A stretch of DNA of 36,474 bases from the IMG/VR virus record IMGVR_UViG_3300037310_000190, positions 1-36,474 of that record; one strand, given 5' to 3'. The stretch is from a virus. Positions 5,350 to 32,409 of the stretch are shown here, piece by piece. Below the pieces are notes generated by a model, which saw only the letters and a program-made list of their open reading frames with translations, was not told the DNA's origin and did no database searches. The position numbers and the translations under genes were made by a program. Positions within the stretch are counted from its first letter, which is position 1. Each line of letters begins with the position of its first letter.

Positions 5350-7160
5350 GAATGAATTTGCTCTGGGAAGACGATATCGAGCTATCGGAAGAAAAGATAG
5401 CTGAGGTAGCAGCGCAGCAGATAGTGATTCGCGACTACCAGCAAGAAGCGGTCGCGAGCGTATTTGATGAGTGGTCCCGGGTGCGATCTACCCTGCTTTG
5501 CTTGCCCACGGGGACGGGCAAAAGTGTATGCTTTTCCGAAATTATGAAGCAATGGAATGGCGAAAGGATGATGCTGATTGCGCACCGAAAAGAGCTAATC
5601 TACCAGGCCGTCGGACATGCTACGCGAGCCGGTCTATCGTGCGGGATCGAGATGGCGCATCGCTACGCCAAGCCGACCGATCGCGTGGTTGTGTCATCGA
5701 TTCAGACGCTGATTTCTAGGTATCGATGCCGAGCCTGTCGCGGTGATGATTGCGAAGTCTGCGGCGGCAGCGGTAAGGTGAAGCGATTCACTCGATTTAA
5801 TCGTGACGAATTTGGCCTCGTCGTCATCGACGAAGGTCATCACGCTACCGCCAAATCCTATCGATCTGTTCTCGCTTGGTTTGATCGGTGTAAGCATCTT
5901 TTGGTCACGGCGACCCCAAAACGAACGGATAAGGTCGGGCTGCATAATGTATGCGACTCGACAGCGTATTCCATGACGCTACGTCAGGCGATTGATCTTG
6001 GTTGGCTGGTCCCTGTCCGGCAAAGATATGTCACCGTGAAAGGACTTGACCTAGAGTCTGTGAGCATCGTGGGAGGTGACCTAGACGATGGCGAACGTGA
6101 GCGGGCGTATCTAGGAGATAGCGACGAACGCGAGGATAGCCTGTTGCATGGTGTCGCGAAACCGTTCCTGGCTGAACTGAAATCAGAGCAAGGTATCATC
6201 TTTGCGTCTGGACAAGAGCACGCGAAAAAGCTCACAGCGGCACTGAATTCTTATCCAGGAGTCTATGCGGCGTGCGTGCTCGACGACACTCTACCAGCAG
6301 ATCGAGAGCGAATTGTAGACGAGTTTCGGCGCGGAACAATTCGCATACTAGTTAATTGCATGGTATTTGCTGAGGGTTTCGATGCGCCGGCAACAAGCGT
6401 GATAGGTAATTGCCGACCGACCAAAAGTCAGACGATTTTGGCACAATTCATCGGTCGCGGTACAAGGCCTCTGCCGGGTGTGGTCGATGGTCCACTGACG
6501 CCCGAAGAACGCAAGCAGGCTATCGCAAATAGCGCGAAGCCACGCTGCCTAGTGCTCGATTTTGTCGGGGCAACGGGTCGGCTGAGGCTGGCCACAACTG
6601 TGGATTTACTTGCGGGCGACGATGTAGATCCGATCGATTTAGAGGAGGCTGTGAGGGTCTCGCGAGAAGAAGGGGATGTAGATCCTGTGGAAGCGCTCGA
6701 GCGCGCGAAAGCTGCGAGAAAAGAGAGAGAGCGCGCGAAAGAAGCAGAGAAATTGCTTGTCACAAAGCGGCGAGCAGCATCTATTGAGTACAGCGCGGAC
6801 GAGGTGGATGACACGGAATTTGAATCATATCATCAAACAATCAGGCGTGATTCAATTACGCGCGGCCAACTAAATCTACTCGTGCGACGCCTTGGCTATA
6901 ATGCGTCGAAGATCAAGCACTTGTCAAAAAAAGCAGCCAGCCGCGAGATCACTAAGGCGCTAGCGATCGCGCGTGGCAAGGCAAAAAAATCATATCAGGA
7001 TAGGTTTCAGACCGCGCAGACGATGGGCGATCTGCATTGCATCGGCGGGCAGATTAAGCGCGCGATCGAGTACGGAGATGTGGTAATGAAGGATGCCGGG
7101 TTGCAGCAACAACTGCGAGAGTCGTTTCGTAAACGCGCGAAAGAATTGAGGGGCTCATGA
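5322..7160 (+). CDS. Superfamily-2 DEAD/DEAH-type helicase with an inserted zinc knuckle.
   Basis: Walker A is LPTGTGKS, motif II VVIDEGHH, motif III TATP and motif VI QFIGRGTR. The insert is CRACRGDDCEVCGGSG. An alternative start is the ATG at 5352, 3 nt after the upstream stop. Confidence 0.9.
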   Translation: MDSKIKGEVRMNLLWEDDIELSEEKIAEVAAQQIVIRDYQQEAVASVFDEWSRVRSTLLCLPTGTGKSVCFSEIMKQWNGERMMLIAHRKELIYQAVGHATRAGLSCGIEMAHRYAKPTDRVVVSSIQTLISRYRCRACRGDDCEVCGGSGKVKRFTRFNRDEFGLVVIDEGHHATAKSYRSVLAWFDRCKHLLVTATPKRTDKVGLHNVCDSTAYSMTLRQAIDLGWLVPVRQRYVTVKGLDLESVSIVGGDLDDGERERAYLGDSDEREDSLLHGVAKPFLAELKSEQGIIFASGQEHAKKLTAALNSYPGVYAACVLDDTLPADRERIVDEFRRGTIRILVNCMVFAEGFDAPATSVIGNCRPTKSQTILAQFIGRGTRPLPGVVDGPLTPEERKQAIANSAKPRCLVLDFVGATGRLRLATTVDLLAGDDVDPIDLEEAVRVSREEGDVDPVEALERAKAARKERERAKEAEKLLVTKRRAASIEYSADEVDDTEFESYHQTIRRDSITRGQLNLLVRRLGYNASKIKHLSKKAASREITKALAIARGKAKKSYQDRFQTAQTMGDLHCIGGQIKRAIEYGDVVMKDAGLQQQLRESFRKRAKELRGS

Positions 7161-7615
7161 GTGTATATGTAAGATGGTTAATTCGAAAAGATCTGCCCAA
7201 TGTGATGGAGATCGAGAACGAGAGCTTTCGGTCACCGCTAGATCGAGAGGACCTTATGCAAGTACTGAAAGGCCGAACGGTGATTGGTATGGTTGCGGCG
7301 GATGAGGAAGAAAACGTCGTTGGATTTATGATCTATGAGCTGAGAACGAGGGGAATATATCTCATAGATGTTGCCGTAGCTAAGGCACATCGACGGCGCG
7401 GCGTGGGTAGAGCGATGATGGACAAGCTCATTGCAAAACTTGACGCGCGAAGGCCGAGACTTTGCGTATCCGTTGACGAATACAGTCTGGATGCGCAGTT
7501 GTTTTTCCGGTCGATGGGCTTTCGGTTTAAGAAAATTTTGCATGGATTTTATGGTGAGTCTGATGCGTATTTGATGGAGGTGGACAGTGAGCGACAGGCG
7601 AATCAAGCTGTTTGA
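7157..7615 (+). CDS. GNAT family N-acetyltransferase (RimI-like), copy 1.
   Basis: Acetyl-CoA motif IDVAVAKAHRRRGVGRAMM. ATGA overlap with the helicase stop. It shares the AQLFFRSMGF motif with the second GNAT at 28861. Confidence 0.85.
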   Translation: MSVYVRWLIRKDLPNVMEIENESFRSPLDREDLMQVLKGRTVIGMVAADEEENVVGFMIYELRTRGIYLIDVAVAKAHRRRGVGRAMMDKLIAKLDARRPRLCVSVDEYSLDAQLFFRSMGFRFKKILHGFYGESDAYLMEVDSERQANQAV

Positions 7616-12374: not shown

Positions 12375-12646
12375 TTTCACAAATCAATGACATGCGCGAA
12401 ATGGCTCTACAAGCGATGGCGTCAGGCGACTATGTCCGTGCGCTGGACTACGCCGAACGTGCGCAATTTCTCATTGCTACGATGCCGTCAAGAAGCAGTT
12501 TAGATGATGAGGAAATAGAATGGAATGCCGAAGCGGTGGATAAAGTTGTGGTCATGCTAAAGAAAAAAGTAGCAGAGTTGCGCGCGGACTCGGCGGAAAG
12601 TGCGGACGGTATACTATTCTCCTTGCCTGGACGGTTTGTCAGATGA
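12371..12646 (+). CDS. gpW-like head-tail joining protein.
   Basis: It lies immediately upstream of the portal gene. The C-terminus KKKVAELRAD...GILFSLPGRFV resembles lambda gpW LKKYIAELEVQ...GPAGFYV. ATGA overlaps occur at both ends. Confidence 0.5.
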   Translation: MISQINDMREMALQAMASGDYVRALDYAERAQFLIATMPSRSSLDDEEIEWNAEAVDKVVVMLKKKVAELRADSAESADGILFSLPGRFVR

Positions 12647-14076
12647 GCGAGTTGTGCTTTTCTCAAATGATAGGCGTTGATGATATCGTCGAGCGAGCTT
12701 GGGACGATCGCTCGCGATGGCACGTCCGCGCGTTTGAGAGCGCCGAGTACGATCCTCTCACCGCGAGCCGCTGGTCGCGCGTCGTTGGTGAGACCACGAT
12801 CAACGAAGAAATCGAGGCAAGCCAAAGTATTTCCAGGGCCAAAGCTGTTTATGAAGGAAGAAATTCTTCTCTAGTGCGCGGGGTTATTCACTCGCATTCT
12901 ATCGCGGTCGTTGGTGCCGAGGGTCCGACGTTAGATTTGCAGTGTACGATTGATTCGGACGATCATGAGGAATGGTGTATAGCTGCGGAAAAAGTGTGGA
13001 ATGATTTTAGCGGATGCGGGTCAGATATTTATGGAATTTCGAGATGCGAAGCATCAGGTAAATTGCATTTTGCCGATCTGCTCCAGCAATGGATAGGGTT
13101 GCTGTGGACGTGTGGCGAAGCACTAGGGGTAAAGGTCGAGGATCCTGACCGCCCTGCGGATGACCCGATCGGATGGCGGATAATGAATATCAATCCGTCT
13201 CGTTTGTACAGCCCGCCGAATTGGTCGAGAGTAGGAAGACTTGGCGTGCGCACAAATGTGATCGGTCGTCCTACGGGCTATTGGATTGGCGATGGTAATA
13301 GTGGCGGGCGCGAGATTTCGTCCGATAGAATTTATCATTTATTTCTGGAGACGGAGCCCGAGCAGCTGAGGGGAGTGCCGCTTATCAACACGTGTCTGAA
13401 CACGGCGGCGGACATCAGGGATTACGATGCAGAAGTTCTCGCGGCAGCTAGGGCCGCAGCGGCGCTTAGCATGTTCGCGTATACGACCGATCCCGAAGCC
13501 GAATACAAAGAGCCGCCAAAAGACGATCGATCGGTAAGTTATCGACGGGGACAGCTGAACTATCTACGCCCGAAGTGGCAATTGGCAAGCAATCCAGCTA
13601 CTCAGCCTAGCGCGAGCTATCGAGACCATCGTCATGAGAGGATGCCAGAACTCGGTAGACCGGTGTCAATGCCAGGGCTGATCGTGCGGCAGGACGCCAG
13701 CGGGCACAATTATAGCTCAGCGCGATTTGACTACGCGCAGTATTGCTTGGCCATCGAGGTATTCCAGCGGTGGCTAACGCGGCGATGCGTAGAGCGGCTG
13801 CGAAGGGAAGTGACGGCAACGGCGATTCTGTCGGGTGTATTGCCGCGCCAGCCGCCTGGCGTGATTGCCATTTGGACGTGGCCTCAGCCGCAGCCGATCG
13901 ACGAACTAAAGAACGCTGAGGCGGAAGCGATCCAGTTAGACACGGGGACGATTAGCTTTTCGGAAGCGTGCAAGCGTCGAGGGACGACGGCTGAGCGAGT
14001 GGCGCTACAGCGTCGGCGTGACTCTCGATTGCTGAAAAAACATGGTCTAAGGAGTGTAGAACGTGAAGATGAATAG
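12643..14076 (+). CDS. Portal protein, lambda gpB family.
   Basis: It is 477 aa. The C-terminal segment WTWPQPQPIDELKNAEAEAIQLDTGTISFSEACKRRG parallels lambda gpB WIGSGRMAIDGLKEVQEAVMLIEAGLSTYEKECAKRG. The position between the gpW-like gene and the protease fits. Confidence 0.8.
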   Translation: MSELCFSQMIGVDDIVERAWDDRSRWHVRAFESAEYDPLTASRWSRVVGETTINEEIEASQSISRAKAVYEGRNSSLVRGVIHSHSIAVVGAEGPTLDLQCTIDSDDHEEWCIAAEKVWNDFSGCGSDIYGISRCEASGKLHFADLLQQWIGLLWTCGEALGVKVEDPDRPADDPIGWRIMNINPSRLYSPPNWSRVGRLGVRTNVIGRPTGYWIGDGNSGGREISSDRIYHLFLETEPEQLRGVPLINTCLNTAADIRDYDAEVLAAARAAAALSMFAYTTDPEAEYKEPPKDDRSVSYRRGQLNYLRPKWQLASNPATQPSASYRDHRHERMPELGRPVSMPGLIVRQDASGHNYSSARFDYAQYCLAIEVFQRWLTRRCVERLRREVTATAILSGVLPRQPPGVIAIWTWPQPQPIDELKNAEAEAIQLDTGTISFSEACKRRGTTAERVALQRRRDSRLLKKHGLRSVEREDE

Positions 14077-16315
14077 ACGAAAAAGTGATTTAAGCTACAC
14101 GCGGAAAATGTCATTTTCCCCGACCTCGCTGAATGAAGCGGAAGGCACGATTGAGGCTGTAATATGTACAGAATCACCCGTAAGGAAAAGATTTGGATTT
14201 GACGAAATTCTGCTTGTCAGCGGGGCAAGCACGGGAGACCAAGTTCCGTTGCTGTTTGACCACATTCGAAATAGTTCATCAGTCATTGGATCTGCCCGGG
14301 GATTTCACATCGAAAATGATAAGCTAATTTCGCAACTCTGGTTTGACACCGAGTTGGGAAAAGAGGCGGAAAGCGTTTGGCAGCGCGTAAAAAGAAGCCA
14401 TATTCGCAAGTTTTCCATAGGATATACATACTCAGAATCTGACTATGTCACGATTAGCCCACATTCGACCAGGACAATTGTCGGCAAATCATTCACGGCG
14501 TCCGATCGCCCGTTGCGTGTTGTTTTTAAATGGGTCTTGGACGAAGTATCTACGGTGGTGATCCCCGCTGACCACAATGCTCAAGCTCGAAAAAAAGAGG
14601 CTAGACAACGTCAAGAAAAAATGGATAATAAAAGGACGAGGAGACAATCAATGGCAAGAAAATCTGAAACGGTTGCGCAAGAGAGCAATGATCAAGCCAA
14701 GACGTCCGAGCACGGATTGAGGTCACAGGAGCAAGTCGCGGATCATAGATCACATCAAGTCGCGGATCATAGATCACATCAAGTCGCGGATCATAGATCA
14801 CATCAAGTCGCGGATCACAGTAATGATCAAGTCGCGGATCATAGATCACAAGATGTAGAACAAGACGCGCGTAACGGAGCGGCGCGGGAGCGGCGGCGAC
14901 AGCAAGCGATACGCGAGCTAGCCGACCTAGCGGGGCCATGCGTTGCAGAATCTATGATCCGCCAAGCGTGCGATGAGGGCTGGGAAGAATCGCGGGCGCG
15001 GCATGTATTTGCGGGATTAGCTGCAGGATCTCGACGAGAGTCGCCCGGACCCCAAGCGCCGGCGGGACATACTCGCAACGGTTCGCAGCATGTCACGCAA
15101 CGCGCAGTAATGATCGCCCTCGGAATTCGTCACGGTGTGCGATTCGATTCGCCAGTTTTTTGCGAGAGCGGCGTCAGGCAGTCTCTGACGTATGGTAATC
15201 GCGGGGCATGGATTCCGCCTCTTGCTGCCGACCTATCGTCGCGCGGGATTCCCAGCGATGACGCGCTGGCGCGAGAATTCGAGCGCGGCTCGGCGATGGC
15301 ATCTCTGAGCAATCGAGAGCTGACGCGGATGTATCTTGAGGCGGGCGGGCACGAGGCACCATACCATCCCGATGAGCTTGTCCGGTCCGCGCTTTCGACG
15401 AGTGCGGGATTTGAAACGATGCTGTCGGGCGTTACGCACATGCTTGTTCTGCAAGGCTACGGAGACAACGCAACGGATACGCTCGGATGGGTGCATCAGG
15501 AGGAGGTCGGCGACTTCCGGCAGAATGATCGATACCAGTCTGGCGGATTTAGTAATCTGTCCAAGCTCGGAAAAAATGGTCATACGGCCAAGATTTTGAA
15601 CCCCGAAGATCCAATCAAAGAGAGTTACGCTATCGAGCGTTTCGCGGGTCAAGTGATTTTCGACGAGCGATTTATCTATGACAGCGCATCGTTTGGCATG
15701 GCCGAGCAGAGCGCCGAGGAAATCGGTCGACGAGCGCGAGAGATTCCGATTGGGCTTGTCTATTCGCAGTTGCTTTTGAACGGCAACATGTCAGACGGTG
15801 GCGCGTTCTTCAATGCGACGCGCGGCAATTTGTTGTCTCTCGCGTTGACGGGCGCTAATTTGGATTTACTAGCGCAGGCTCTTAGCTCGATGAAGGGGGC
15901 TAATGGAATGCCGACGAATGTTGCCGGAGCGACGTTGCTAACAAGCGGTTCGCTAGGGTATGAGGCCACGAAAATGATCTCTAGCGCCGAGCTGCGAAAT
16001 AGCAGTGGCGAGAGCGGAACGACAAATCCGAATTACGGTCGCTTCGACGTGGTCGTCGAGAGTCGACTAAGCAACGGAGTCGTGAATCCTGACAGCGAGA
16101 CTCTAGTTGCTGCGCGACCGAATCGATGGTACCTGGTTGGTCCGTCGTCGATGCGAGCGTGTGAACTGGGTTGGTTAGTCGGAACCGGTCGGCAACCACG
16201 AGTTCGGCGGACGCCACTTGCCCAAGGCGCTTGGGGTGTTCATCTCGATATAGTAATCGACTGCGGCGCGAAGATGATCTCGCCCCAAGCGATGGCCGCC
16301 AGTGATCAGCCATAA
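14063..16315 (+). CDS. Fusion protein: HK97/S78-type prohead protease, a repeat-containing linker, then a probable major capsid domain.
   Basis: The N-terminus has VPLLFDHIRNSSSVIG and KFSIGYTY, which are S78-like His and Ser contexts. The middle is charged and repetitive. The roughly 400-aa C-terminal part resembles Mu gpT-like capsid proteins from memory. No separate MCP gene is evident elsewhere. Confidence 0.7.
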   Translation: MKMNRRKSDLSYTRKMSFSPTSLNEAEGTIEAVICTESPVRKRFGFDEILLVSGASTGDQVPLLFDHIRNSSSVIGSARGFHIENDKLISQLWFDTELGKEAESVWQRVKRSHIRKFSIGYTYSESDYVTISPHSTRTIVGKSFTASDRPLRVVFKWVLDEVSTVVIPADHNAQARKKEARQRQEKMDNKRTRRQSMARKSETVAQESNDQAKTSEHGLRSQEQVADHRSHQVADHRSHQVADHRSHQVADHSNDQVADHRSQDVEQDARNGAARERRRQQAIRELADLAGPCVAESMIRQACDEGWEESRARHVFAGLAAGSRRESPGPQAPAGHTRNGSQHVTQRAVMIALGIRHGVRFDSPVFCESGVRQSLTYGNRGAWIPPLAADLSSRGIPSDDALAREFERGSAMASLSNRELTRMYLEAGGHEAPYHPDELVRSALSTSAGFETMLSGVTHMLVLQGYGDNATDTLGWVHQEEVGDFRQNDRYQSGGFSNLSKLGKNGHTAKILNPEDPIKESYAIERFAGQVIFDERFIYDSASFGMAEQSAEEIGRRAREIPIGLVYSQLLLNGNMSDGGAFFNATRGNLLSLALTGANLDLLAQALSSMKGANGMPTNVAGATLLTSGSLGYEATKMISSAELRNSSGESGTTNPNYGRFDVVVESRLSNGVVNPDSETLVAARPNRWYLVGPSSMRACELGWLVGTGRQPRVRRTPLAQGAWGVHLDIVIDCGAKMISPQAMAASDQP
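14732..14851 (+). repeat. In-frame 24-bp tandem repeat x5 (CAAGTCGCGGATCATAGATCACAT; peptide QVADHRSH).
   Basis: Three perfect and two variant units were read directly from the sequence, inside the protease-capsid linker. Confidence 0.95.
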
Positions 16316-22507: not shown

Positions 22508-22517
22508 ATAGTGAATT

Positions 22518-22937: not shown

Positions 22938-25076
22938 GTGGATATCGTTTACAACAGCGACGCTACGGCGCTGAACGAATTAGGGCACGTCGTCTATATC
23001 CGAAGACAGTGGGGCGATCCATGGGAGATAGCGCCCGAACTTAGCTGCGAGCAAGCAACGTGGGCGCTAGGATTCGACATTTCTACCGCTACCTTAGTCC
23101 GCGAGTTCGGGCTAATTCGATTGCCAGGCGAGCAAACCCACACGATACGAAATAAAGTAGATTTGACAGGTTTTTTCGTGCTAGTGGAGTATCAGACGCA
23201 TTACGGCAGTCCGTTATTTTGGCTAGGGTTCGTTGAGAGGAGTGATGCAGACTCAGCGGCAGTGAGTAACGGAGTGCTGAGCGGGCTGCAAGTCTATGAG
23301 TGCTTTGGATTAGAGAAGGCGCTCGACCTGGCATATTGTGATACGACAGTGTGGACTGACGGATCGGTGCGGCGCGGAAATGTAGATACAGTCTTCAACC
23401 GCAAGCGTCAGGGAAATAGATCATTAGTCACGGCGACGAATGCCGTGACAGGATTGGAATCGTATGTATTTTCTGGAAGACAAGACGAATCAGCGTATTG
23501 GACCACTCGCGACATTGTCCAATATCTCTTGGCTTGGCATGTACCGCTTAGCTCAACAGGAGTGGCAGCGATTGCCATAGGCGTTGTTAATTTGGCCAAC
23601 GTGTACGCGCTTGATCTAACGCCCGAACTAAACACTGCTGGACGAAGCGTGAGGGATCTTCTCAATGCGTTACTGCATGGTAATAATTTGCTAACGTGGT
23701 ATCTGCGCTACACTGCTCCAGCAAACATCATGACAGGCACGTGGATCATCGATGTGGTGATTGTGTCCCTCGCGCCGGCGGCGATAACGCTACCGAGCGG
23801 CGCAACGCAACCAGGCGCAGCGACGATAATAAATCTAGAAGTCGATGCCGATGTCATGACTGCTACGAGCTTGACCGATATAGGGCTGGAAGTGGCTGAT
23901 CAAATACGAGTGCGCGGAGGGCGAAAATCGTATATTTTCACTGGATATATGTGTGACACGACGGCGACGGCGCCGGAAGCGTCGACAAAATTCCTGGTGT
24001 CTGATTGGTCAGACAGTGATCAAGGAGCGTACATTTCGGCAGCAGTCACCGAGCAGGGATATGCAGATCTGACGCTAGACGAAAAGAAACAGGCAAACGG
24101 ATTCGAGCGAGAAAAGTACCCGAGCGTCTTCGCCGACTATCGCGTGAATTGGCGTTGGGATTGTGTGTCACATGATGACGAGCACGTCTTTGGGACTTTC
24201 GAAGATGAGCCGGTGAAGGTCGTTCCGCAGGAACTTCGCCTATTGCCTGATGTCCCGCTATTTGTCGGCGTGAATTATTCAGGCGAACCACCATTCAACG
24301 AATCGTACCAGCGGCTAGCGCGATTTCCCTATCAGCCGATCAAGCTGTGGTCTTACGCGGTACGGGAGCAACGATTATATGATGCGCGAGGTCTCGCTGC
24401 CAAAAACGCACAAAATGCGGTCGAGGGAGATACACCATTTCCGGAAATTTCTATTTCTACTGACGGCGATAAAATTAGCTTTGTTGTGCGGAATGCGGAA
24501 CAACATACTATCAATAATTTGGCGAGTCAGGGATTGTTGGAAAATCGGCAATCGTTGCACACGCGAAAGATTGCCGCGGCGCAATCTCTGATCACTGTGG
24601 CGGTAAGCGTAGATTCGTGGTGTGAAGGAATCTATCCTGTATCACCACAAGCATATCGCGACGTGCTGCGAGTTCACACGCTGTATGCAGGTGATGCATA
24701 TCAGCATGTCACGCTGACGCCGGGTACGATCCTAGGAGTTCGGCATGACGGCGCACCAGTCACCGCCGAGGGTGGAATAGTGCGTGACGATAGCGGGGCG
24801 CTGCGAGACCTGGCAAGAATAGTGTATGAGTGGATGGCGACGCCGAGAAAAAATTTGGCAGTAAGATCGGCGCGAATCGACGGGCGATGGGTGATTGGCG
24901 CGCTGATCGGTACGACGAAAGAGCACGTATCAACAGTGTCGGTCAATTCGCCGATCGCTAGGATTCAGGTGCAATCGCCGCGCGCGATAAACAGCGAGCC
25001 GATTTCGCCTCAGATGATTGTTTCTACGGCAATGTTTGTTCGTGACTGGCAGCGGGTGCTTGATGAGTTCAGTTGA
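22938..25076 (+). CDS. Large tail tip / host-specificity-type protein.
   Basis: It is 712 aa. The GTG start immediately follows the upstream TGA. The position corresponds to baseplate or central-fibre genes. Confidence 0.65.
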   Translation: MDIVYNSDATALNELGHVVYIRRQWGDPWEIAPELSCEQATWALGFDISTATLVREFGLIRLPGEQTHTIRNKVDLTGFFVLVEYQTHYGSPLFWLGFVERSDADSAAVSNGVLSGLQVYECFGLEKALDLAYCDTTVWTDGSVRRGNVDTVFNRKRQGNRSLVTATNAVTGLESYVFSGRQDESAYWTTRDIVQYLLAWHVPLSSTGVAAIAIGVVNLANVYALDLTPELNTAGRSVRDLLNALLHGNNLLTWYLRYTAPANIMTGTWIIDVVIVSLAPAAITLPSGATQPGAATIINLEVDADVMTATSLTDIGLEVADQIRVRGGRKSYIFTGYMCDTTATAPEASTKFLVSDWSDSDQGAYISAAVTEQGYADLTLDEKKQANGFEREKYPSVFADYRVNWRWDCVSHDDEHVFGTFEDEPVKVVPQELRLLPDVPLFVGVNYSGEPPFNESYQRLARFPYQPIKLWSYAVREQRLYDARGLAAKNAQNAVEGDTPFPEISISTDGDKISFVVRNAEQHTINNLASQGLLENRQSLHTRKIAAAQSLITVAVSVDSWCEGIYPVSPQAYRDVLRVHTLYAGDAYQHVTLTPGTILGVRHDGAPVTAEGGIVRDDSGALRDLARIVYEWMATPRKNLAVRSARIDGRWVIGALIGTTKEHVSTVSVNSPIARIQVQSPRAINSEPISPQMIVSTAMFVRDWQRVLDEFS

Positions 25077-25395
25077 CGATCGACTTACTCGACTTGAGCG
25101 CTCATTATCGGCGATGTCCAAGTCTAAGACCTCGGCCCCGCTAGTGGGATTGTTTCTCGTTCCTTCATCAGGAATTGCCGGTGTGTTTGAAAATGTGGTG
25201 CATAGCGAAGAATGCCTTAGATATACAATACAAATTACCGACGGAGTAGCCAGTATAGTGCCACTGGTCGTCGGCGACGGTCAAGTTGTGGAGCGGGTCT
25301 ATAACGACATGACAGTCGACCTCCAGCCCGGTCATTTGATCAAGGCGATTAGATGCTGTGGGTTGTGGCTCCCCTTTACCGAGGACTGCGGATGA
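25063..25395 (+). CDS. Hypothetical protein (110 aa).
   Basis: ATG at 25063 (the frame opens at 25018). The N-terminal coiled segment is SVDDRLTRLERSL. ATGA overlap with the lipase gene. Confidence 0.6.
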   Translation: MSSVDDRLTRLERSLSAMSKSKTSAPLVGLFLVPSSGIAGVFENVVHSEECLRYTIQITDGVASIVPLVVGDGQVVERVYNDMTVDLQPGHLIKAIRCCGLWLPFTEDCG

Positions 25396-26132
25396 ACAGA
25401 CAAGACGCGCTAAGGATAGCACGAATGATTTATGCGGTATCCAAAAGAGAGGAGGAAGCGTGCGCGTCTGAGATAGGCATGTCAGTAGTCTATCGGCGTG
25501 TACTGAATTTGCGTGCTGCAGTGTTCTCCGATCACGACCAGGTAATCGTTGCGATACCCGGAAGCGATGACTTAGCGGACTGGATTTCGAACTTCGATAG
25601 TCGTTTAGAGCACGTCGTAATTCGCAGGAAAAACATGGTCGCGCATCGTGGCGCAGTGCATAATGCGCTAGCGCTGTATCCGTTCGTCGCGGGATCTGTG
25701 TATCCGTTCGTCGCGAAGCATGAGCAAGATATCATCATTGCGGGGCATAGCGCAGGTGGTCAGATCGCGGAGATCCTGGGGGCCGCGATGTCAGCGACGG
25801 TGTACACCTTCGGCGCGCCGCGTGTGTTTTCTCAGGCGTCGGCGGTCGATCTTGTCGCGACAAAACGATATCGATTTACGAATCAGCGTGATCCGATTCC
25901 CAGTTTGCCATTGCGGAAATTTCGCTGGTTATTTGGTGGGGCATCGTTCGCCCATGCGTCGCCCGAATTACATTTAGAGGGAAATGGTGATATAATAACA
26001 GACAGGAAGGAAAGATCCTTTCTGAATTTGTTTACTAGGTCGTGGTGGGATCTCTGGCGGCGACGGTTGCCGCTAGCCATCCACGATCACCATATGACAA
26101 GCTACATTGAAGCATTGGAGAAAAAGGTATGA
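25392..26132 (+). CDS. Class-3 lipase / alpha-beta hydrolase.
   Basis: The nucleophile elbow is IIIAGHSAGGQIA (GHSxG). NQRDPIPSLP gives the Asp context and HDHHMTSYIEAL the His context, both typical of Lipase_3. No signal peptide. The ORF track frame opens at 25353. Confidence 0.8.
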   Translation: MNRQDALRIARMIYAVSKREEEACASEIGMSVVYRRVLNLRAAVFSDHDQVIVAIPGSDDLADWISNFDSRLEHVVIRRKNMVAHRGAVHNALALYPFVAGSVYPFVAKHEQDIIIAGHSAGGQIAEILGAAMSATVYTFGAPRVFSQASAVDLVATKRYRFTNQRDPIPSLPLRKFRWLFGGASFAHASPELHLEGNGDIITDRKERSFLNLFTRSWWDLWRRRLPLAIHDHHMTSYIEALEKKV

Positions 26133-26365
26133 AGTTGTTAGGATTTGTTGTTGGCTTGGTGATTTGTGTTCAGGCGAGCGCGCAATGCGGGCCTAACGGA
26201 TGCTGCCCTGGCGGTGCGTGTATTCGTTACCCGACCCCGATCCGCAGCTGGCTTTTCGGTCGTTCGGTTTACGTTCCGCCAACGGGTGCCCCTACCGCGC
26301 CACGGTATGCCCCCACGCAGATTGCCCCGATTCCACATTACGAGTTTAGGGTAATCGTAAAATGA
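26129..26365 (+). CDS. Small secreted Cys/Pro-rich peptide (78 aa).
   Basis: The Sec-type signal is MKLLGFVVGLVICVQASA, followed by QCGPNGCCPGGAC (5 Cys in 13 residues). ATGA overlaps occur at both ends. Confidence 0.7.
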   Translation: MKLLGFVVGLVICVQASAQCGPNGCCPGGACIRYPTPIRSWLFGRSVYVPPTGAPTAPRYAPTQIAPIPHYEFRVIVK

Positions 26366-27828
26366 ATCGGTTGCGAATCATATTGCTGCTGTGCTGCTGC
26401 TGGCTAGACTACACTACGGCATTCGCTCAACAGCGACTGCCAAGCACCAACACGTTTTGGCAGTGGTCTCCACCTCGCCCGTACCACGATGCCGCTGTAT
26501 GCGTGAGGGCTGGCAGAAGTGCTGGGTCTGGGTCGATACTTACGGCCAGCAATGACCCGAGGAGAAAGTTCGCGCTAACTAATCACCATGTAATCTCCAG
26601 TGATCGCGGAATTCACTCGCAGGTAATCGTTCAAACTAAGAGCGGGCTGAAAATCCAGGGAAAAGTAACGCACTATTCGAGCGCGGATAACGGATACGAT
26701 CTCGCGCTCATTGATTTAGGGACGAGCCACGCCAATCTAGTCTCCGTTCAAATTTGTACCGCAGATCCACCACTGGGAACGGTCCTAGAGATGGCAGGTT
26801 TTGGCGGGCCAAATTACGGTCGGTTTCGCTCGTTTTTTGCCAAGCGAATAGAACCAGAGTTAGGGGCGATGGCGATCGATGCTCCAACAATCTCAGGTGA
26901 CAGTGGTTCTGGAATTCTCTGGGGAGGGTGTCTGGTGGGGGTCAACTTCGGCGGGCCGAACGCTCAACGACTCGCAGTTAGCAGAAGCAGTGGAAGTATT
27001 CCGCTAGTGTACCCGGCGAGTTCACACGCGAGTCAGCCGACGCTGGCGAGACTGCTTAGCGAGTGGATGCGCGATTTGGGATGTGTTCCGACGTTCGCGA
27101 ATCCCGGGAGCTATGGGCCTGGGGTGCCGAGCGACGACCAGTTCTATCCTCCGCAAGACGGAGGATCCAACATGCCAATCTCATACCAGTGTCCGCCATA
27201 CCGACGGCCACCACCACAGCCGATTTATCAACCACCATCGCAACCGATTCAGCCGAAAGAGTGTATTCCGATTACGTTCGATTACGCGAAGGTGGCTGAT
27301 GCATTGCTAAAAAACTCCGAGTTCATTTCATTGATTTCATCGCAACGCGGTCCAGCAGGTGCTAATGGACCCGCTGGACCCCCAGGGCCTCCAGGTCAAG
27401 TAGACCTCACGATTGTGCAAGGAATGATCCAGAAAGCGATCGCCGAGAGTGGCGTGAGCAACGTTCCTAACATCGACCTTGATCTATTGGCTTCGATTAT
27501 CGCGAACAAACATGCAGATTTATTGCGCGGTCCAAAGGGTGATAAAGGTGATAAGGGTGACACTGGAATAGCAGGACAAGTACCGCCTACGCCTACGGAT
27601 GCAGATTCTCGAATCCTGTATTTCACGTCGCAGGGGTGCAAGGAGTGCATTACGGCGACGGAAAAGATCGAAGCCCTGAAAGCAAAGGGTGCGCCGATCA
27701 CAATAATAACGCTAAGCGAAAAGGATGCGGCAACCAACGGTGTGCCCATGATTTTCGTGCCGAAGACAAATCGCAAGGTCATTGGATTGGCCAATGTCCT
27801 GAGCTATTTGACCCTCGTTACCTGGTAA
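26362..27828 (+). CDS. Secreted multidomain protein: trypsin-like serine protease, Pro-rich linker, two collagen-like G-X-Y runs and a CxxC thioredoxin/glutaredoxin-like C-terminus.
   Basis: The signal peptide is MNRLRIILLLCCCWLDYTTAFA. The catalytic triad contexts are TNHHV, YDLALIDL and GDSGSG. The collagen runs are GPAGANGPAGPPGPPG (27349-27402) and GPKGDKGDKGDTGIAG (27529-27582). The C-terminal segment is YFTSQGCKEC. Confidence 0.8.
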   Translation: MNRLRIILLLCCCWLDYTTAFAQQRLPSTNTFWQWSPPRPYHDAAVCVRAGRSAGSGSILTASNDPRRKFALTNHHVISSDRGIHSQVIVQTKSGLKIQGKVTHYSSADNGYDLALIDLGTSHANLVSVQICTADPPLGTVLEMAGFGGPNYGRFRSFFAKRIEPELGAMAIDAPTISGDSGSGILWGGCLVGVNFGGPNAQRLAVSRSSGSIPLVYPASSHASQPTLARLLSEWMRDLGCVPTFANPGSYGPGVPSDDQFYPPQDGGSNMPISYQCPPYRRPPPQPIYQPPSQPIQPKECIPITFDYAKVADALLKNSEFISLISSQRGPAGANGPAGPPGPPGQVDLTIVQGMIQKAIAESGVSNVPNIDLDLLASIIANKHADLLRGPKGDKGDKGDTGIAGQVPPTPTDADSRILYFTSQGCKECITATEKIEALKAKGAPITIITLSEKDAATNGVPMIFVPKTNRKVIGLANVLSYLTLVTW

Positions 27829-27834
27829 GGAACC

Positions 27835-28077
27835 ATGAACGAATTGATGAACGCCCTCTTGGGCATGGGAGCGCTTTCGAGTCTCCGACATGACGACGCT
27901 GTTGCGCGTCAAGGTGTTATGAACCATCAGACCGGTAGTCATCTGATGGACCTCTCGTTTATCCGTGATGCAACAGAGATGAGCATTCCGGAAAGCTACG
28001 CGGTACAGGGATTGGCGCTAAGCCAACTTCCCGCGCAAGCAGCGGGAATGAACTTGGGATCGCAAACCCCAAAGTAA
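27835..28077 (+). CDS. Hypothetical protein (80 aa).
   Basis: AAGGAA RBS. No motif recognised. Confidence 0.6.
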   Translation: MNELMNALLGMGALSSLRHDDAVARQGVMNHQTGSHLMDLSFIRDATEMSIPESYAVQGLALSQLPAQAAGMNLGSQTPK

Positions 28078-28080
28078 CAG

Positions 28081-28127
28081 CGGGAGCGGCCACAAGCGGA
28101 GCGTCAACGACGTTCGGCCAGCTCCCG
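28081..28127 (+). other. Long imperfect hairpin in an intergenic spacer.
   Basis: CGGGAGCGGCC (28081-28091) pairs with GGCCAGCTCCCG (28116-28127) with one bulge. An inner hairpin GCGTC-AAC-GACGT lies at 28101-28113. No T-run follows. Confidence 0.5.
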
Positions 28128-28152
28128 AAGTAGGCTACGCGGAAAGCCAACA

Positions 28153-28545
28153 ATGGAAGACGACATGTTAGCGGATATTGTGAAAGCGTATGCTGCGGCG
28201 AAAATCCAGCGGCTCCATATTCTTAATCAGAACGGGGCGAATATGGTATATAACCACGGCAGAGATATTGCGAATAAGCTAGGATTAGGCAACCCTCCGC
28301 AAGGAGAGGCCAACCAAAATCTAGGCATCACTCCATTCCCAAATCCGAGTTCACAAAACAACGTTAGCGTGTCGGATTCGTCCACGGCAAGAAGGTCAAG
28401 TCCGCTGGCAACGGCGGCGCTGGTGGTGTCGTCATTGCTTGGCGGTGCTGGGCTTGCAACGATTCTTCCTCTGTACTTTCAAAAACCAGCATCAACAGCA
28501 CCGACGGAGCCAAATTTTGGCGCTGTCGATATCGATGTGAGGTAG
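28153..28545 (+). CDS. Membrane-associated protein (130 aa) with one C-proximal TM helix; possible lysis accessory.
   Basis: Hydrophobic stretch SPLATAALVVSSLLGGAGLATILPLYF. It lies in the region between the tail and terminase genes. Confidence 0.6.
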   Translation: MEDDMLADIVKAYAAAKIQRLHILNQNGANMVYNHGRDIANKLGLGNPPQGEANQNLGITPFPNPSSQNNVSVSDSSTARRSSPLATAALVVSSLLGGAGLATILPLYFQKPASTAPTEPNFGAVDIDVR

Positions 28546-28546
28546 T

Positions 28547-28861
28547 ATGGATTTCGAGGGAAAAGTCGGGGCAGCGCTGGCGGAGCAAATGCGCCAGATA
28601 CAGGAAGAGGGCAACGCCTTTTCGCCCGTCAACGCAAAACTTCAAGAGGCGCAAAACCGACTACTAGAAGGATTCTTGTCACGATCGGAGCCTAGGCCCG
28701 TACATCCACTGGCCGGGAACGAGGATTTCGCCTGGATCGTCAGCCAACTTCAGTCGAATCCTCTTGTGATTCCGTACTTTCGGAAGTACCTGGAAGCAGT
28801 CCTAGTTCAACTAAAAGCGGACATTGAAGCATCACTTGCAAAATCGCTTGGTCAGGTCTGA
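28547..28861 (+). CDS. Hypothetical protein (104 aa).
   Basis: Tightly packed ORF. No motif recognised. Confidence 0.6.
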   Translation: MDFEGKVGAALAEQMRQIQEEGNAFSPVNAKLQEAQNRLLEGFLSRSEPRPVHPLAGNEDFAWIVSQLQSNPLVIPYFRKYLEAVLVQLKADIEASLAKSLGQV

Positions 28862-29292
28862 TGGTAACTACGATGATCATAAGAAAAGCCAGTGTAGCCG
28901 ACCTGCTCGACATGACAAACCTGGAGGCGAGATGTTTTCAGGGGCCATGGGAGATCAATGATTTCTTGGATGCGTTCAAAAAATATCACATGCTCGTTCT
29001 TTGTGACGGCGACGAATTGGTGGGTTATGTAGTATTTGTTCAACGCGGCAAGAAGCTAGAGATCATCAACGTGGCGGTCGCTCCTGAGAGACGGCAGCAA
29101 GGCCTAGGGACAGAGCTTTGTGTTGCTGTGGCGCTGGCAGGACCAACCACGGCATTTATTCCGGAAAATAACCTAGTGGCGCAATTGTTCTTCCGCTCGC
29201 TGGGATTTAGCGCGGTGCAAATACACCGACAAGGAAGCGGCAACGATATCTACGAATTCCGGAATAAGAGACGGAAGCGAGCTGCGGTATGA
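28861..29292 (+). CDS. GNAT family N-acetyltransferase (RimI-like), copy 2.
   Basis: INVAVAPERRQQGLGTEL (the Q/RxxGxG/A motif). AQLFFRSLGF is shared with the GNAT at 7157. TGATG overlap. Confidence 0.8.
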   Translation: MVTTMIIRKASVADLLDMTNLEARCFQGPWEINDFLDAFKKYHMLVLCDGDELVGYVVFVQRGKKLEIINVAVAPERRQQGLGTELCVAVALAGPTTAFIPENNLVAQLFFRSLGFSAVQIHRQGSGNDIYEFRNKRRKRAAV

Positions 29293-29822: not shown

Positions 29823-29825
29823 CAA

Positions 29826-29999
29826 ATGACAGAGTATACGCTGTATACAGTAGAAGGCTTGCTAACGATTGCCATCACAACCTTAGCAGGACTTGTCACG
29901 TATCTGTGGAAAGAAATTAGAATTTGCGCTGAAGACCGGAAAAAATTATGGGGTGAGCTGGCGTATCTCCGTGGAAAGATTGGCGTTAACGACGATTGA
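29826..29999 (+). CDS. Small single-TM membrane protein (57 aa), not in the supplied ORF track; holin-like candidate.
   Basis: Hand translation gives MTEYTLYTVEGLLTIAITTLAGLVTYLWKEIRICAEDRKKLWGELAYLRGKIGVNDD. The ATG lies 4 nt after the upstream stop, and the TGA overlaps the TTG start of the next gene. Confidence 0.55.
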   Translation: MTEYTLYTVEGLLTIAITTLAGLVTYLWKEIRICAEDRKKLWGELAYLRGKIGVNDD

Positions 30000-30487
30000 A
30001 CAAAGATGACAAAGATCGCTTGGTGAAGAGCCTGAAATCGATTCCAAAGGGAGTCTATTGCGAGATGGCGGGCAAGGCCCACAAGTCGGTGATGGATTGC
30101 CAGCGGAAATATGCGCTCCCAGTGGCAGGGGAAACTGTAGATCTCTATGCCGTGGTACGATGGTTTCACGACCTTCTCGCGAAGCGCGGCGATTGGCTCG
30201 TCATCGACAGCGATGATCTGGAAGCGCTAGAGAAAGAAAAGTTGCGCCTCCAAACAGAGAAGCTGAGGACAGAGTCTGAGCGTCTCAAGATCAGTCTCCG
30301 TGCCGATCAGAAGAGGACCATAGATCGCGAGGAAGTACGTGAAAAGCTGGCGTGGCTGGTGACTGAGCTACGGCAGTGTGGCGTGCTCGTTGGTCGCGCA
30401 AATACCGGTCGCGACGGGCAAGCAATACTCAATGATTTTCTCGATCGCGTGGCTGATGAGCTGCGGCGCGGAGTACTCACAGTGTGA
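29996..30487 (+). CDS. Putative terminase small subunit (Nu1-like).
   Basis: It lies directly upstream of TerL and is translationally coupled to it (GTGA overlap). It has an N-terminal HTH-like segment and then a coiled coil, LEALEKEKLRLQTEKLRTESERLK. The TTG start is uncertain. Confidence 0.55.
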   Translation: MNKDDKDRLVKSLKSIPKGVYCEMAGKAHKSVMDCQRKYALPVAGETVDLYAVVRWFHDLLAKRGDWLVIDSDDLEALEKEKLRLQTEKLRTESERLKISLRADQKRTIDREEVREKLAWLVTELRQCGVLVGRANTGRDGQAILNDFLDRVADELRRGVLTV

Positions 30488-32409
30488 ACGACCTGCTAGC
30501 TGAAGCGATCTCGAATGCAAGGTCGAAACAAGTCCGCTCAATAGTCGATTGGGCCACGCATGAGGTAGTTGTGCCGGACGGAAAATTTCGTGGGCAGCGA
30601 CTACGACTAGATACTCAGCCGGTCGCGCGTCTATGGTTAGAGGCGATCGATTCGGGTCGGTGGACGGAGTGTGTTTATACTGGGCCAAGTCAATCAGGAA
30701 AAACGCTGATTGGCTATGTTGTGCCGCTGCTATACCACACGTGCGAGCTGGCGGAATCGTGCGTGATGGGAGTGCCATTCGGCGATATGGCGGCGAATAA
30801 ATGGCGCATGGATGTACGGCCTGTACTCGCAGCTAGTCCCAATCTGCGTGAGTGTATACCGGCGTATGGTGAAGGGAGCGCAGGTGGCAAGGCAAAAGAC
30901 ATGATCTCGCTAAACAGCGGAGGTGTAATAAAAATCATCAGCGCTGGCGGGGACGATGCGAATAAAGCCGGATTTACCGCGCGCGTCGTGGTCATCACCG
31001 AGGCTGCTAGATTTTCGCATGGATCAGATACCAGCGAAGAGTCGGACCCGTTGCGTCAGCTGCGCGCGAGGCAGCGAGCGTATCCCGACACCGAGCGCAG
31101 AACATATATTGAGGGCACAACTACGATCGAAAGTGAACTGCCGTGGAGACTGCGAGCACAATCGACCCGCTCGAAGATTGTTACTCCATGTCCACATTGC
31201 CGAGGCTGGATTTCGCCAGAGCGAAGCGATCTGCTGGGATGGGACCAAGAGACCGAATCGCAAGCGAGAGCATGTGCTCGGTGGTATTGTCCAGCATGTG
31301 GCCAAGAAATCAGCGACGACCAAAGGCGAGACAGTCTTCAGCGGGCAGTACTGCTGCACGGCGAACAAACAATTGACGGCGAAGGTAATGTGGCAGGTGA
31401 TGCGCCAGATACTAGTCGATTATGGTTTCGCACAAGCGCATGGCACAATTGTTTTTTGGACGCGGGAGATTTGGGAGTCGATGAATGGAGAGCGGCTCAA
31501 ATTCAGGAGAACTCGCCGGAAAGAAGTTCAGCAGACAAAGAGCTTTGTCAATTCGTGTGGTGTACGCCATACGCGCCGCCAAAATTTGAGGCGGATTTAG
31601 ATATCGATCGAGATGTAGTAGGGAGAGAGAGAATGCGGCCAGGGTGGCCGAAAGGTCTTGTTCCGCGCGAGACGGAGGATGTCGCGTTGGCAATCGATTT
31701 GGGAGAAAAGGAGGGATGGTATCTTCTGTTATCGCTATTTGGTGATGGGCGTAAGCACGTGATAGACTACGGGGCGTTCGACGTGCTTAGCCATACGAAA
31801 CCAGTAGAGGACGCGATCAAAGAGGCGCTAGATGAGATGCGGACGCGGTGGGAATCGGGATGGATTTGCGATTCAGTAGAATCAGCAACAAGATCTCCTG
31901 ATGAAATATGGATTGATGCTGGGAACTGGGGCGAGACGGTGAAGCAGTGGGCGAGCGGTAAGGGACGGACGATTGTGGCAGCGTATGGAAGAGGAGAAAC
32001 GCAGCTCGAGCGCTCGCGGTTTGAGCTGCCCAAAAAAACCGGAAGCCATGTTATTGAGGTCGATAAGCGTGGTCGCTATTATTGCTCATTTATTCCAGCG
32101 TCCCGGTGTTACGCAGTGTTTTGGGATGCTGATTTAGGAAAATATGAATCGCAACAAAGCTTGACGCTGCCCCTCAGTGCTCCAGGCGCAACAACGCTGT
32201 TTGCCGGTACGCGGCGAGAGCATGAGCGATTCGCCAGGCACATTTGCAACGAGAAGCTAATCACAGAACACCATGCAATTCGTGGCGAAAAGCAGTACTG
32301 GAAACGAACTGGCGCGAATCACCTGGGCGATTGCCTAGCGATGGCGTGTGTAGCCGTGACACGCGCACAAGCCAGACGAATTCGGGCAATAGGTACGGAA
32401 TGGGACTGA
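30484..32409 (+). CDS. terL: Terminase large subunit, lambda GpA family.
   Basis: Walker A is YTGPSQSGKT. A zinc-ribbon pair, CPHCRGW...YCPACGQ, is typical of GpA-type terminases. It is 641 aa. Confidence 0.85.
   Translation: MNDLLAEAISNARSKQVRSIVDWATHEVVVPDGKFRGQRLRLDTQPVARLWLEAIDSGRWTECVYTGPSQSGKTLIGYVVPLLYHTCELAESCVMGVPFGDMAANKWRMDVRPVLAASPNLRECIPAYGEGSAGGKAKDMISLNSGGVIKIISAGGDDANKAGFTARVVVITEAARFSHGSDTSEESDPLRQLRARQRAYPDTERRTYIEGTTTIESELPWRLRAQSTRSKIVTPCPHCRGWISPERSDLLGWDQETESQARACARWYCPACGQEISDDQRRDSLQRAVLLHGEQTIDGEGNVAGDAPDTSRLWFRTSAWHNCFLDAGDLGVDEWRAAQIQENSPERSSADKELCQFVWCTPYAPPKFEADLDIDRDVVGRERMRPGWPKGLVPRETEDVALAIDLGEKEGWYLLLSLFGDGRKHVIDYGAFDVLSHTKPVEDAIKEALDEMRTRWESGWICDSVESATRSPDEIWIDAGNWGETVKQWASGKGRTIVAAYGRGETQLERSRFELPKKTGSHVIEVDKRGRYYCSFIPASRCYAVFWDADLGKYESQQSLTLPLSAPGATTLFAGTRREHERFARHICNEKLITEHHAIRGEKQYWKRTGANHLGDCLAMACVAVTRAQARRIRAIGTEWD

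Follow-up and report, generated by a model that had tools for sequence, protein, structure and literature searches.

A lipase, a secreted Cys/Pro-rich peptide and an exported stalked protease in a recurrent gene cassette of a probable Planctomycete phage

The window analyzed here, 36,474 nucleotides in length, is the whole of IMG/VR virus record IMGVR_UViG_3300037310_000190 (positions 1–36,474). Downstream of its tail genes lie three open reading frames (ORFs) that encode a class-3 lipase, a secreted Cys/Pro-rich peptide, and a 488-residue protein (full ORF, 26362–27828) in which a signal peptide and a trypsin-like protease domain are joined to a collagen-like stalk and a thioredoxin-fold C-terminal domain (Table 1). 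A first-pass annotation, made from the sequence alone, had described these three ORFs as overlapping through ATGA; all three are present, and the junctions are confirmed at 25392, 26129, and 26362. The same annotation had treated the trio as a unit standing where lysis genes are expected. The conserved unit is larger, as it also takes in the downstream genes for proteins of 80, 130, and 104 residues and usually a nuclease and a transmembrane (TM)/coiled-coil protein. This cassette is found in about 20 uncultured phage contigs and may serve in lysis of the host.

Lipase, stalked protease, and Cys/Pro-rich peptide

By profile and by its conserved triad, the product of the first ORF is a class-3 lipase, for which lipolytic activity is predicted. 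It matches Pfam Lipase_3 at 53.6 bits (cut-off 22; E = 2.8e-14) and the esterase/lipase family phrog_21992 at 2.5e-19, and residues G118, H119, S120, G122, D167, and H233 are invariant in an alignment of seven sequences that share 26–57% identity. The earlier description of a class-3 lipase with an intact GHSAG elbow and its Asp and His partners is borne out by these matches, as is the lack of a signal peptide: the N-terminus has no hydrophobic segment, and the maximum hydropathy is 1.19. The start of the gene is ambiguous, with the JGI call beginning 11 codons downstream (235 residues, P0020). The parallel that had been drawn with mycobacteriophage LysB does not extend to family membership, as the lipase has no PHROG or Pfam match to the LysB family and matches only Lipase_3 and phrog_21992. 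The 110-residue ORF that precedes the lipase has one borderline hydrophobic segment (residues 24–42), has no family match in Pfam, PHROGs, or NCBIfam, and is not seen in related loci; its membership in the cassette is uncertain.

Table 1. Positions of the cassette genes, of the domains of the 488-residue protein, and of other recognised features in the window
Feature	Position	Strand	Description
110-residue ORF	25063..25395	+	Upstream of lipase; overlaps the 712-residue tail-region protein, and the lipase start via ATGA
Class-3 lipase, 246 residues	25392..26132	+	Pfam Lipase_3 (PF01764); triad S120 (GHSAGG), D167, H233
Secreted Cys/Pro-rich peptide, 78 residues	26129..26365	+	Predicted signal at residues ~1–18, ending ASA before Q
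Signal peptide of 488-residue protein	26362..26427	+	MNRLRIILLLCCCWLDYTTAFA before QQ; hydrophobic N-terminus ending AFA
Trypsin-fold (HtrA-like) serine protease domain, residues ~40–240	26479..27081	+	H76, D113, S181
Pro-rich disordered linker, residues 263–298	27148..27255	+	From sequence; pLDDT <50; common to whole family
Stalk	27349..27579	+	Two runs of five G-X-Y triplets around a helical segment
C-terminal thioredoxin/glutaredoxin-fold domain, 72 residues	27610..27828	+	CKEC at residues 426–429; conserved VP (cis-Pro position)
80-residue protein	27835..28077	+	No TM segment, no signal; directly downstream of protease with thioredoxin-like C-terminus
130-residue protein	28153..28545	+	Single C-terminal TM segment, residues ~84–109; conserved short tail ending GAVDIDV
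104-residue soluble helical protein	28547..28861	+	Conserved cassette member
GNAT acetyltransferase	28861..29292		Within cassette region
SNase-like endonuclease, 177 residues	29289..29822	+	No signal peptide; phrog_452 endonuclease, 6e-11
57-residue protein	29826..29999	+	N-terminal TM segment, residues 6–27, then short charged helix; just before TerS
gpA-type TerL	30484..32409		Pfam and PHROGs matches
Lambda-type portal	12643..14076		Pfam and PHROGs matches
S78 protease-capsid fusion	14063..16315		Pfam and PHROGs matches
Tape measure			Pfam and PHROGs matches
GNAT acetyltransferase	7157..7615		Pfam and PHROGs matches
Hexapeptide-repeat (LbH) protein	2669..3412		
Helicase, Dam methylase, NinG, GT2 glycosyltransferase			Pfam and PHROGs matches

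The 488-residue protein opens with a hydrophobic segment of signal-peptide type, the cleavage sites here and in the peptide being judged by eye and from hydropathy. From profile, predicted fold, and alignment, the domain that follows is a PA-clan Trypsin_2 (S1C/HtrA-like) protease with a conserved triad. The protein matches Pfam Trypsin_2 at 33.2 bits (cut-off 27.6), and NCBIfam returns a weak degP_htrA match. The AlphaFold model of the domain has a predicted local distance difference test score (pLDDT) above 90, and its best Foldseek matches are DegQ, DegS, and DegP, and also Rv3671c, with E values of ~1e-10 to 1e-9. In the protease alignment G179, S181, and G182 are invariant, D113 and D180 are present in at least 90% of sequences, and H76 (TNHHV) is conserved. 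Loss of the catalytic residues in relatives, which the first-pass annotation had named as an outcome that would speak against its proposal, is seen in neither the lipase nor the protease alignment. The protein is not an HtrA protease in the strict sense, as its C-terminus consists of a collagen stalk and a thioredoxin fold, and Pfam finds no PDZ domain in it.

The G-X-Y runs of the stalk span residues 330–346 (27349–27399) and 390–406 (27529–27579), and within the family G342 occurs in at least 90% of sequences and G336 and G339 in all of them. Pfam Collagen (PF01391) falls below threshold on the window protein (18.1 bits against 27.2) and exceeds it in relatives (P0245, 36.7 bits; L015, 31.7 bits; individual proteins carry P numbers here, and loci L numbers). 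The C-terminal domain is modelled by AlphaFold as β-α-β-α-β-β-α with a pLDDT of 84–90 (DSSP, two models), and 49 of its 50 best Foldseek matches in the PDB are thioredoxins, glutaredoxins, or protein disulfide isomerases (probability ~0.99, TM-score 0.45–0.58, E = 2e-3 to 1e-2). Sequence profiles stay below the Pfam cut-offs (DUF1223, 20.2 against 30.7 bits; Glutaredoxin, 14.5 against 22.9 bits), and a PDB profile search with the domain returned only E values above 0.3. In the six-member thioredoxin-like subfamily C18, C21, V53, and P54, in domain numbering, are invariant. The domain calls of the first-pass annotation for this protein, namely a Sec signal, a complete trypsin triad, a Pro-rich linker, collagen runs, and a CxxC thioredoxin-like C-terminus, were right in light of the Trypsin_2, AlphaFold, and Foldseek results.

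No library family spans the full architecture of the 488-residue protein, and matches in BFVD cover the protease domain alone. Homologues numbered 19 in a word-indexed search and 318 representative clusters in an exhaustive one, all of them metagenomic; searching the PDB with the entire protease sequence gave nothing informative, and motif-based scans of GTDB genomes and IMG/VR, built from the protease alignment, found nothing. A census of 159 family members reveals a signal-like N-terminus in 131 of the 149 that start with Met, a GDSG-type motif in 130 of the 159, and at least four collagen triplets in 122; a thioredoxin-like C-terminus is present in 38, with CxxC in 33 of those. At least 300 unannotated sequence clusters make up the family of the stalked protease with a thioredoxin-fold tip. 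The same stalk and tip are also found on a zinc metalloprotease (Peptidase_MA_2, HExxH) in P0174, P0238, and P0265.

Two other identities considered for the protease were rejected. For a defense system, PADLOC gives only a weak LmuA-protease-like match (E = 6.5e-7) over residues 43–160, the N-terminal part of the protease domain, and nothing for the neighboring genes scanned. A prohead protease, considered on account of the proximity to TerL or portal genes in L013–L015, is ruled out by the window's own S78 protease-capsid fusion and further by the export signal, stalk, and thioredoxin-like tip.

Between lipase and protease lies the 78-residue peptide, the mature part of which starts with QCGPNGCCPGGAC, continues with a YPTPIRSWLFG motif, and ends in a Pro-rich tail; it holds 11 Pro. 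The earlier account of a Sec-signal peptide with a Pro-rich tail stands, and its count of five Cys within 13 residues does not: the 13-mer QCGPNGCCPGGAC has four, and the fifth Cys lies within the signal peptide. A homologue is present in L006/L007 (40% identity, 2e-8) and a weak, diverged one in L013, and none was found in L002, L004, L010, or L012. This distribution marks the peptide as an accessory that the cassette can lack. The suggestion that it could be the substrate or partner of the protease is accordingly weakened, as an obligate role is unlikely for a peptide present in so few cassettes. Its reading as an o-spanin was rejected on account of its rarity and of the missing lipobox. A short motif of CPxGxC type occurs in 71 of the 159 census members (e.g., P0218, P0189, P0268, and P0253), where it directly follows the signal peptide, follows the protease domain, or, as in the window at 26183–26221, stands in a separate peptide.

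A conserved cassette in uncultured phage contigs

In the related contigs a lipolytic enzyme and an exported protease are followed by genes for proteins of ~80, 130 (with a C-terminal TM segment), and 104 residues; a nuclease and a TM/coiled-coil protein are often added, and the latter usually closes the set. Lipase and protease are linked in six of the eight contexts checked. Besides the window, Lipase_3 is encoded upstream of the protease in L002, L004, L010, and L012, where the two genes adjoin, and in L006/L007, where two small ORFs stand between them. The gene just upstream of the lipase in L002, L004, L006, and L012 encodes an SNase-like nuclease, with one small ORF between in L002; the window has its nuclease at 29289–29822. 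The 80-, 130-, and 104-residue genes recur in L004, L010, L013, L014, L015, L018, and L020. L017 equals L018 at the protease and 80-residue genes, to which that comparison was limited; L016 and L019, which are shorter contigs, cover the C-terminal end of the protease plus the 80-residue gene, and L021 holds only a partial 80-residue gene.

Individual positions in the cassette are filled by unrelated enzymes. The protease gene is of Trypsin_2 type in most loci and of Peptidase_MA_2 type in L013 and L018. The lipolytic enzyme is Lipase_3 in the window, L002, L004, L006, L010, and L012 and another α/β-hydrolase in L013 and L018, and in L014 and L015, which have no Lipase_3, a small phospholipase A2 (PLA2)-like gene follows the 104-residue homologue (for L014, Pfam PF09056 at E = 1.7e-5, under the gathering score; for L015, no Pfam match, the call being made from a CRYHDYHY motif alone). 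The nuclease is SNase-like in most loci and Endonuclease_NS in L013. Such non-orthologous replacement argues for selection on a set of functions, comprising a protease, a lipolytic enzyme, a nuclease, and membrane proteins.

The type of the protease C-terminal domain matches the family of the small protein encoded downstream in all 15 loci. A thioredoxin-like C-terminus is accompanied by the 80-residue family directly downstream in 11 of the 11 loci with upstream sequence, and an alternative C-terminal domain of ~45 residues is accompanied by a second small-protein family in four of four. This co-variation, a pattern in the sequences, indicates a physical partnership between the protease C-terminal domain and its neighbors and predicts a protein-protein latch.

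The 80-residue protein of the window is 93% identical to its counterparts in L004/L010, 69% to that of L013 (the metalloprotease locus), and 63–80% to those of L014–L020. It is conserved far above its neighbors, with 93% identity between contigs whose proteases share ~36% (BLASTP), which may reflect a conserved host target or recent exchange; it belongs to no family, and none was found in GTDB genomes. The 130-residue protein shares 50% identity with L004 and L010 and 33% with L013 (1e-19), has equivalents in L014, L015, and L020, and is a candidate membrane tether, regulator, or holin-like component. For the 104-residue protein the corresponding values are 52% (L004) and 25% (L013, 2e-10), with equivalents in L010, L014, L015, and L020. 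The window nuclease matches those of L004 and L012 by blastp at 1e-6 and 1.6e-4, respectively, and the Pfam SNase match is weak or faint on the nuclease genes of L006 and L012. The 57-residue protein may correspond to the TM/coiled-coil proteins found at the end of the cassette elsewhere, and is a possible holin-like or i-spanin-like candidate; analogous ORFs occur in L002, L004, L010, L011, L012, L013, and L014, with marginal similarity. Across the window, signal-like and TM-like segments are confined to 25.0–30.0 kb, barring internal stretches of the hexapeptide-repeat protein and of the 712-residue tail protein, and are borne there by the 110-residue ORF (borderline), the peptide, the protease, and the 130- and 57-residue proteins.

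Further genes were observed in or near the related cassettes. Small proteins of CxYHDY type close those lacking Lipase_3 (L014:9039–9305, L015:7002–7328, and L020:2386–2784); the L020 copy (VVHDFLY, no Cys) we take, as a candidate only, to be akin to DUF1353. A gene for a papain-like (C1) cysteine peptidase stands just upstream of two cassettes (L004:102–743 and L014:5933–6604), called from a weak Pfam C1 match in L014 and from Cys, GGHAY, and NSWG motifs in L004, where Pfam gives no match at E ≤ 0.05. The 59.9-kb contig L002 encodes, ~3 kb upstream of its cassette, a protein of 4,242 residues (L002:1–5758; ResIII, AAA_34, Helicase_C_4, and LPD38).

Genome layout, probable host, and the search for lysis genes

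The ends of the window are a 127-bp exact direct repeat (1–127 = 36348–36474), from which we conclude that it is a complete circular phage genome of ~36.3 kb. Genes on the + strand are densely packed from ~16.3 to 35.2 kb, where the tail genes, the cassette, and TerS and TerL follow one another head-to-tail on a single strand; promoter-like and terminator-like sites in a scan of the window are no more frequent than expected by chance.

Relationships of the packaging and capsid proteins bear on the host. Neither near-identity nor protein searches of ~50,000 isolated phage genomes returned a match to the window or to the protease, and TerL and capsid share at most 35% identity, mostly 24–27%, with isolated phages. 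Among 433 TerL homologues, those with organism names are 41–48% identical and all Planctomycetota: Aureliella helgolandensis (48%, on an 8.4-Mb chromosome), Rhodopirellula maiorica, Novipirellula caenicola, Crateriforma conspicua, and a Planctomycetaceae metagenome-assembled genome (MAG). The host is probably a Planctomycete, since all named TerL relatives belong to this phylum. The contig of the closest full TerL relative, L022, holds no cassette and no endolysin within ±10 kb, a non-discriminating result.

The composition of the Planctomycete envelope has been debated for decades. That of Planctomyces is reported to resist sodium dodecyl sulfate and to consist of Pro/Cys-rich, disulfide-stabilised protein (PMC3035269), and Planctomycetes possess lysozyme-sensitive peptidoglycan (PMC4432640, PMC4432595). 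The supposition of the first-pass annotation that the host has an unusual envelope is likely to be correct in view of the TerL relatives and of this Pro/Cys-rich protein layer. The prophage region of Aureliella encodes a Trypsin_2 protein of its own with a signal peptide: the prophage-adjacent gene at L008:1135–2376, on the minus strand of the A. helgolandensis chromosome, specifies 413 residues with the Cys/Pro-rich stretches CPPGTVCPSPG and DPDCPPCPPCPDCKPDCPP. This protein is only weakly like the window protease and could be a separate instance of this theme.

Canonical lysis genes were sought throughout the window. No muramidase, transglycosylase, amidase, CHAP, M15/M23, holin, or spanin was found in any ORF by Pfam (E ≤ 0.01) or PHROGs (E ≤ 0.001). 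A cryptic endolysin, which the first-pass annotation had proposed to look for among the hypothetical genes, was sought on all unassigned ORFs by NCBIfam and, for the concatenated unassigned ORFs of 17276–33817 only, by phmmer against the PDB; neither search found one, or any other canonical lysis gene. At the level of profiles, the earlier statement that no muramidase, amidase, CHAP, or spanin can be recognised therefore holds. Neither the 130-residue nor the 57-residue candidate matches a holin family in PHROGs or NCBIfam. A two-component spanin is not supported by a peptide lacking a lipobox and a 57-residue ORF with only a short helix, and PHROGs gives no spanin match. The literature searched described lysis genes for no Planctomycete phage and contained nothing relevant on phage Lipase_3 in lysis or on trypsin-like endolysins.

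Several other features of the genome were observed. Portal and TerL genes lie ~17 kb apart across the circular junction, with replication and accessory genes between them, which is unusual for a phage with a lambda-type portal and gpA terminase. The protease-capsid fusion contains ~4–5 tandem copies of an HRSHQVAD peptide repeat, and the small ORF next to it (16315–16578) has EDQMPSGRS three times. The sole two convincing minus-strand genes (9114–10612; 242 and 257 residues, without family match) coincide with the lowest GC content and a negative AT skew, which together suggest an acquired island or moron. After TerL, the segment 32411–35180 encodes a 468-residue Cys-rich protein (15 Cys, N-terminal CGCCEC), the GT2 glycosyltransferase, with 14 Cys, and a DUF4326 protein.

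Possible role of the cassette and comparison with known systems

We favor, at somewhat less than an even chance, the reading that the trio is the enzymatic half of a larger, mobile, late, exported, and membrane-regulated lysis cassette adapted to the envelope of the host. The 488-residue protein would be exported by Sec ahead of lysis and would probably be trimeric, since its protease domain is HtrA-like, HtrA proteases being trimers, and its stalk is of collagen type. Its thioredoxin-fold C-terminus would serve for docking or targeting and would be held in place or regulated by the co-evolving 80- and 130-residue proteins, the latter acting in part through the short tail after its TM segment. 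In the subfamily of the window, the retained CxxC could exchange disulfides with Cys/Pro-rich, disulfide-stabilised envelope proteins. The small TM proteins of 130 and 57 residues would be holin-like or would form the release trigger, after which the protease would digest envelope proteins or tethers, and a host envelope of Pro/Cys-rich, disulfide-stabilised protein is one on which a protease makes sense. The signal-less lipase and nuclease would act after the cytoplasmic membrane has been breached, the lipase on membrane lipid, as LysB does, and the nuclease on released DNA. Peptidoglycan might be opened by a cryptic muramidase, by cleavage of peptide stems by the protease, or by host autolysins.

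A number of points weigh against this reading. Because Planctomycete peptidoglycan is lysozyme-sensitive, a cassette without a muralytic enzyme would be incomplete unless the wall is cut otherwise, and a structurally cryptic endolysin may lie among the ~28 unassigned ORFs, which were covered by sequence-profile methods. The disulfide step is weakened by the loss of CxxC in P0189, P0199, L014, L015, and L020, so that redox chemistry cannot be the general role of the domain. The host assignment depends entirely on the TerL relatives, and the sole named carrier of a protease homologue is a contig of a Woeseia (gammaproteobacterial) MAG. The lipase is absent from some cassettes (L003 and L011). 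The site of the cassette also varies, from after the tail genes in the window to after TerL (L014 and L015), after the portal (L013), or beside an integrase (L006), and in L004 and L014 Laminin_G tail-fibre-like genes are found nearby, a setting that would also be compatible with an adsorption-related role.

Such a role is at the center of one alternative, in which the protease, exported, trimeric, and fibre-like, would use its swappable C-terminal domain to bind surface proteins and trim them, as a receptor-destroying, superinfection-excluding, or neighbor-priming exoenzyme. It would act, for instance, on the phage receptor, on crateriform fibres, or on an S-layer-like coat, with the lipase and nuclease as helpers, and as a result superinfection would be blocked, progeny would not be lost on debris, and neighboring cells might be stripped after release. 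The collagen stalk and exchangeable C-terminal domain resemble receptor-binding fibres, two alternative C-terminal domains occur, PHROG tail-fibre matches are obtained (from the collagen part only), the signal peptide brings the protease to the envelope, and the cassette adjoins tail genes in the window and the Laminin_G genes elsewhere. We nonetheless consider this explanation unlikely, as it accounts neither for the way small TM proteins, a nuclease, and a cytoplasmic lipolytic enzyme are tightly linked to the protease nor for their non-orthologous replacement, and it leaves the phage without any recognisable lysis genes; the co-variation of the C-terminal domain with phage-encoded neighbors, moreover, points to a partner within the cassette and not to a host receptor.

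The mobility of the cassette, which is found in varied positions, including beside the integrase in L006 and among recombination genes in L002, could instead mark a set of moron-type degradative enzymes that recycle host or periplasmic macromolecules or provide lysogens with a secreted hydrolase, the true lysis genes being unrecognised ORFs elsewhere. A nuclease, a lipase, and a protease together do look digestive, and many window ORFs are unassigned. This is quite unlikely given that the cassette is always in late-gene orientation and in the window is translationally coupled to late genes, with no separate promoter or terminator signal; core TM proteins and co-evolving small partners would be superfluous for simple nutritional enzymes, and the other auxiliary enzymes of the window (two GNATs, GT2, and the hexapeptide-repeat protein) have no export signal. 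That the lipase and protease are carried by the particle and open the envelope at infection is very unlikely, even though the genes come straight after the tail genes in the window and tail-associated lysins and lipases exist in other phages: nearly all relatives have cleavable-type Sec signals on the protease and the peptide, periplasmic export is hard to square with virion assembly in the cytoplasm, and in L002, L006, and L013 the cassette lies away from tail genes.

Returning to a lysis cassette, there is a reasonable chance, judged from sequence, predicted structure, and synteny, that it embodies a distinct lysis strategy. Its repeated rebuilding from non-orthologous enzymes points to a functional need unlike the holin-endolysin-spanin scheme. 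A broader proposal, which we regard as improbable at present, is that phages of Planctomycetes, and possibly of other hosts, lyse without a peptidoglycan hydrolase, by means of a pre-exported, trimeric, stalked protease latched through its thioredoxin-fold tip to a phage membrane protein, a cytoplasmic lipolytic enzyme, and new small proteins in place of holin, endolysin, and spanin, with the tip of the CxxC subfamily attacking envelope disulfides by thiol-disulfide exchange. If a lysis role of the cassette is confirmed, a new class of phage lytic enzymes would be added, along with tools for lysing or dissecting Planctomycete cells, which do not break easily; genetic tools for the phylum have been reported (PMC5394234). 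Should a cryptic muramidase be found instead, the module would remain new, as an accessory that, much like LysB, serves against envelope layers other than murein. The cassette supplies concrete candidate genes for how phages breach the Planctomycete envelope.

Among known systems, the Rz/Rz1 spanins of lambda bear a superficial resemblance, in that a small N-terminal-TM/coiled-coil protein and a secreted, Pro-rich Cys peptide recall an i-spanin/o-spanin pair; here, however, the peptide, which lacks a lipobox, occurs in only about three cassettes, the genes are neither embedded nor overlapping, and there is no sequence similarity. PeiP and PeiW, the pseudomurein endoisopeptidases of methanogen phages, are a precedent for a protease that acts as an endolysin on a non-standard wall. 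These are cysteine (transglutaminase-like) enzymes of archaeal viruses to which no similarity was detected, whereas the host here has murein. LysB, the mycolylarabinogalactan esterase of mycobacteriophages, is likewise a signal-less lipolytic enzyme of the lysis region, where it acts on an outer lipid layer and so replaces a spanin. This analogy is functional only, as the family here is Lipase_3, the host has no mycolic acids, and relatives swap in another α/β-hydrolase or a PLA2-like gene.

In structure, the protease domain is best matched by the HtrA proteases DegP, DegQ, and DegS, which form trimers in the periplasm and are regulated through a peptide-binding domain at the C-terminus. The phage-encoded protein, at ~20% identity, has no PDZ domain; in its place stand a Pro-rich linker, a collagen-like stalk, and either a thioredoxin-fold domain or an alternative small one. 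With respect to deployment, the cassette may be set beside the Sec-exported and signal-anchor-release (SAR) endolysins, such as Lys44 of Oenococcus phage fOg44, Lyz of P1, and gp22 of Mu, to which no homology was detected in Pfam, PHROGs, or PDB searches. Activation of P1 Lyz involves disulfide isomerisation, a precedent for a cysteine-based switch, and Mu gp22 works with a releasin (PMC9239132). As in those systems, a lytic enzyme with an export signal would be placed in the envelope in advance and restrained until small phage membrane proteins act; here the catalytic domain is not a muramidase, amidase, or transglycosylase but a trypsin-fold protease that carries a collagen stalk and a thioredoxin-fold tip.

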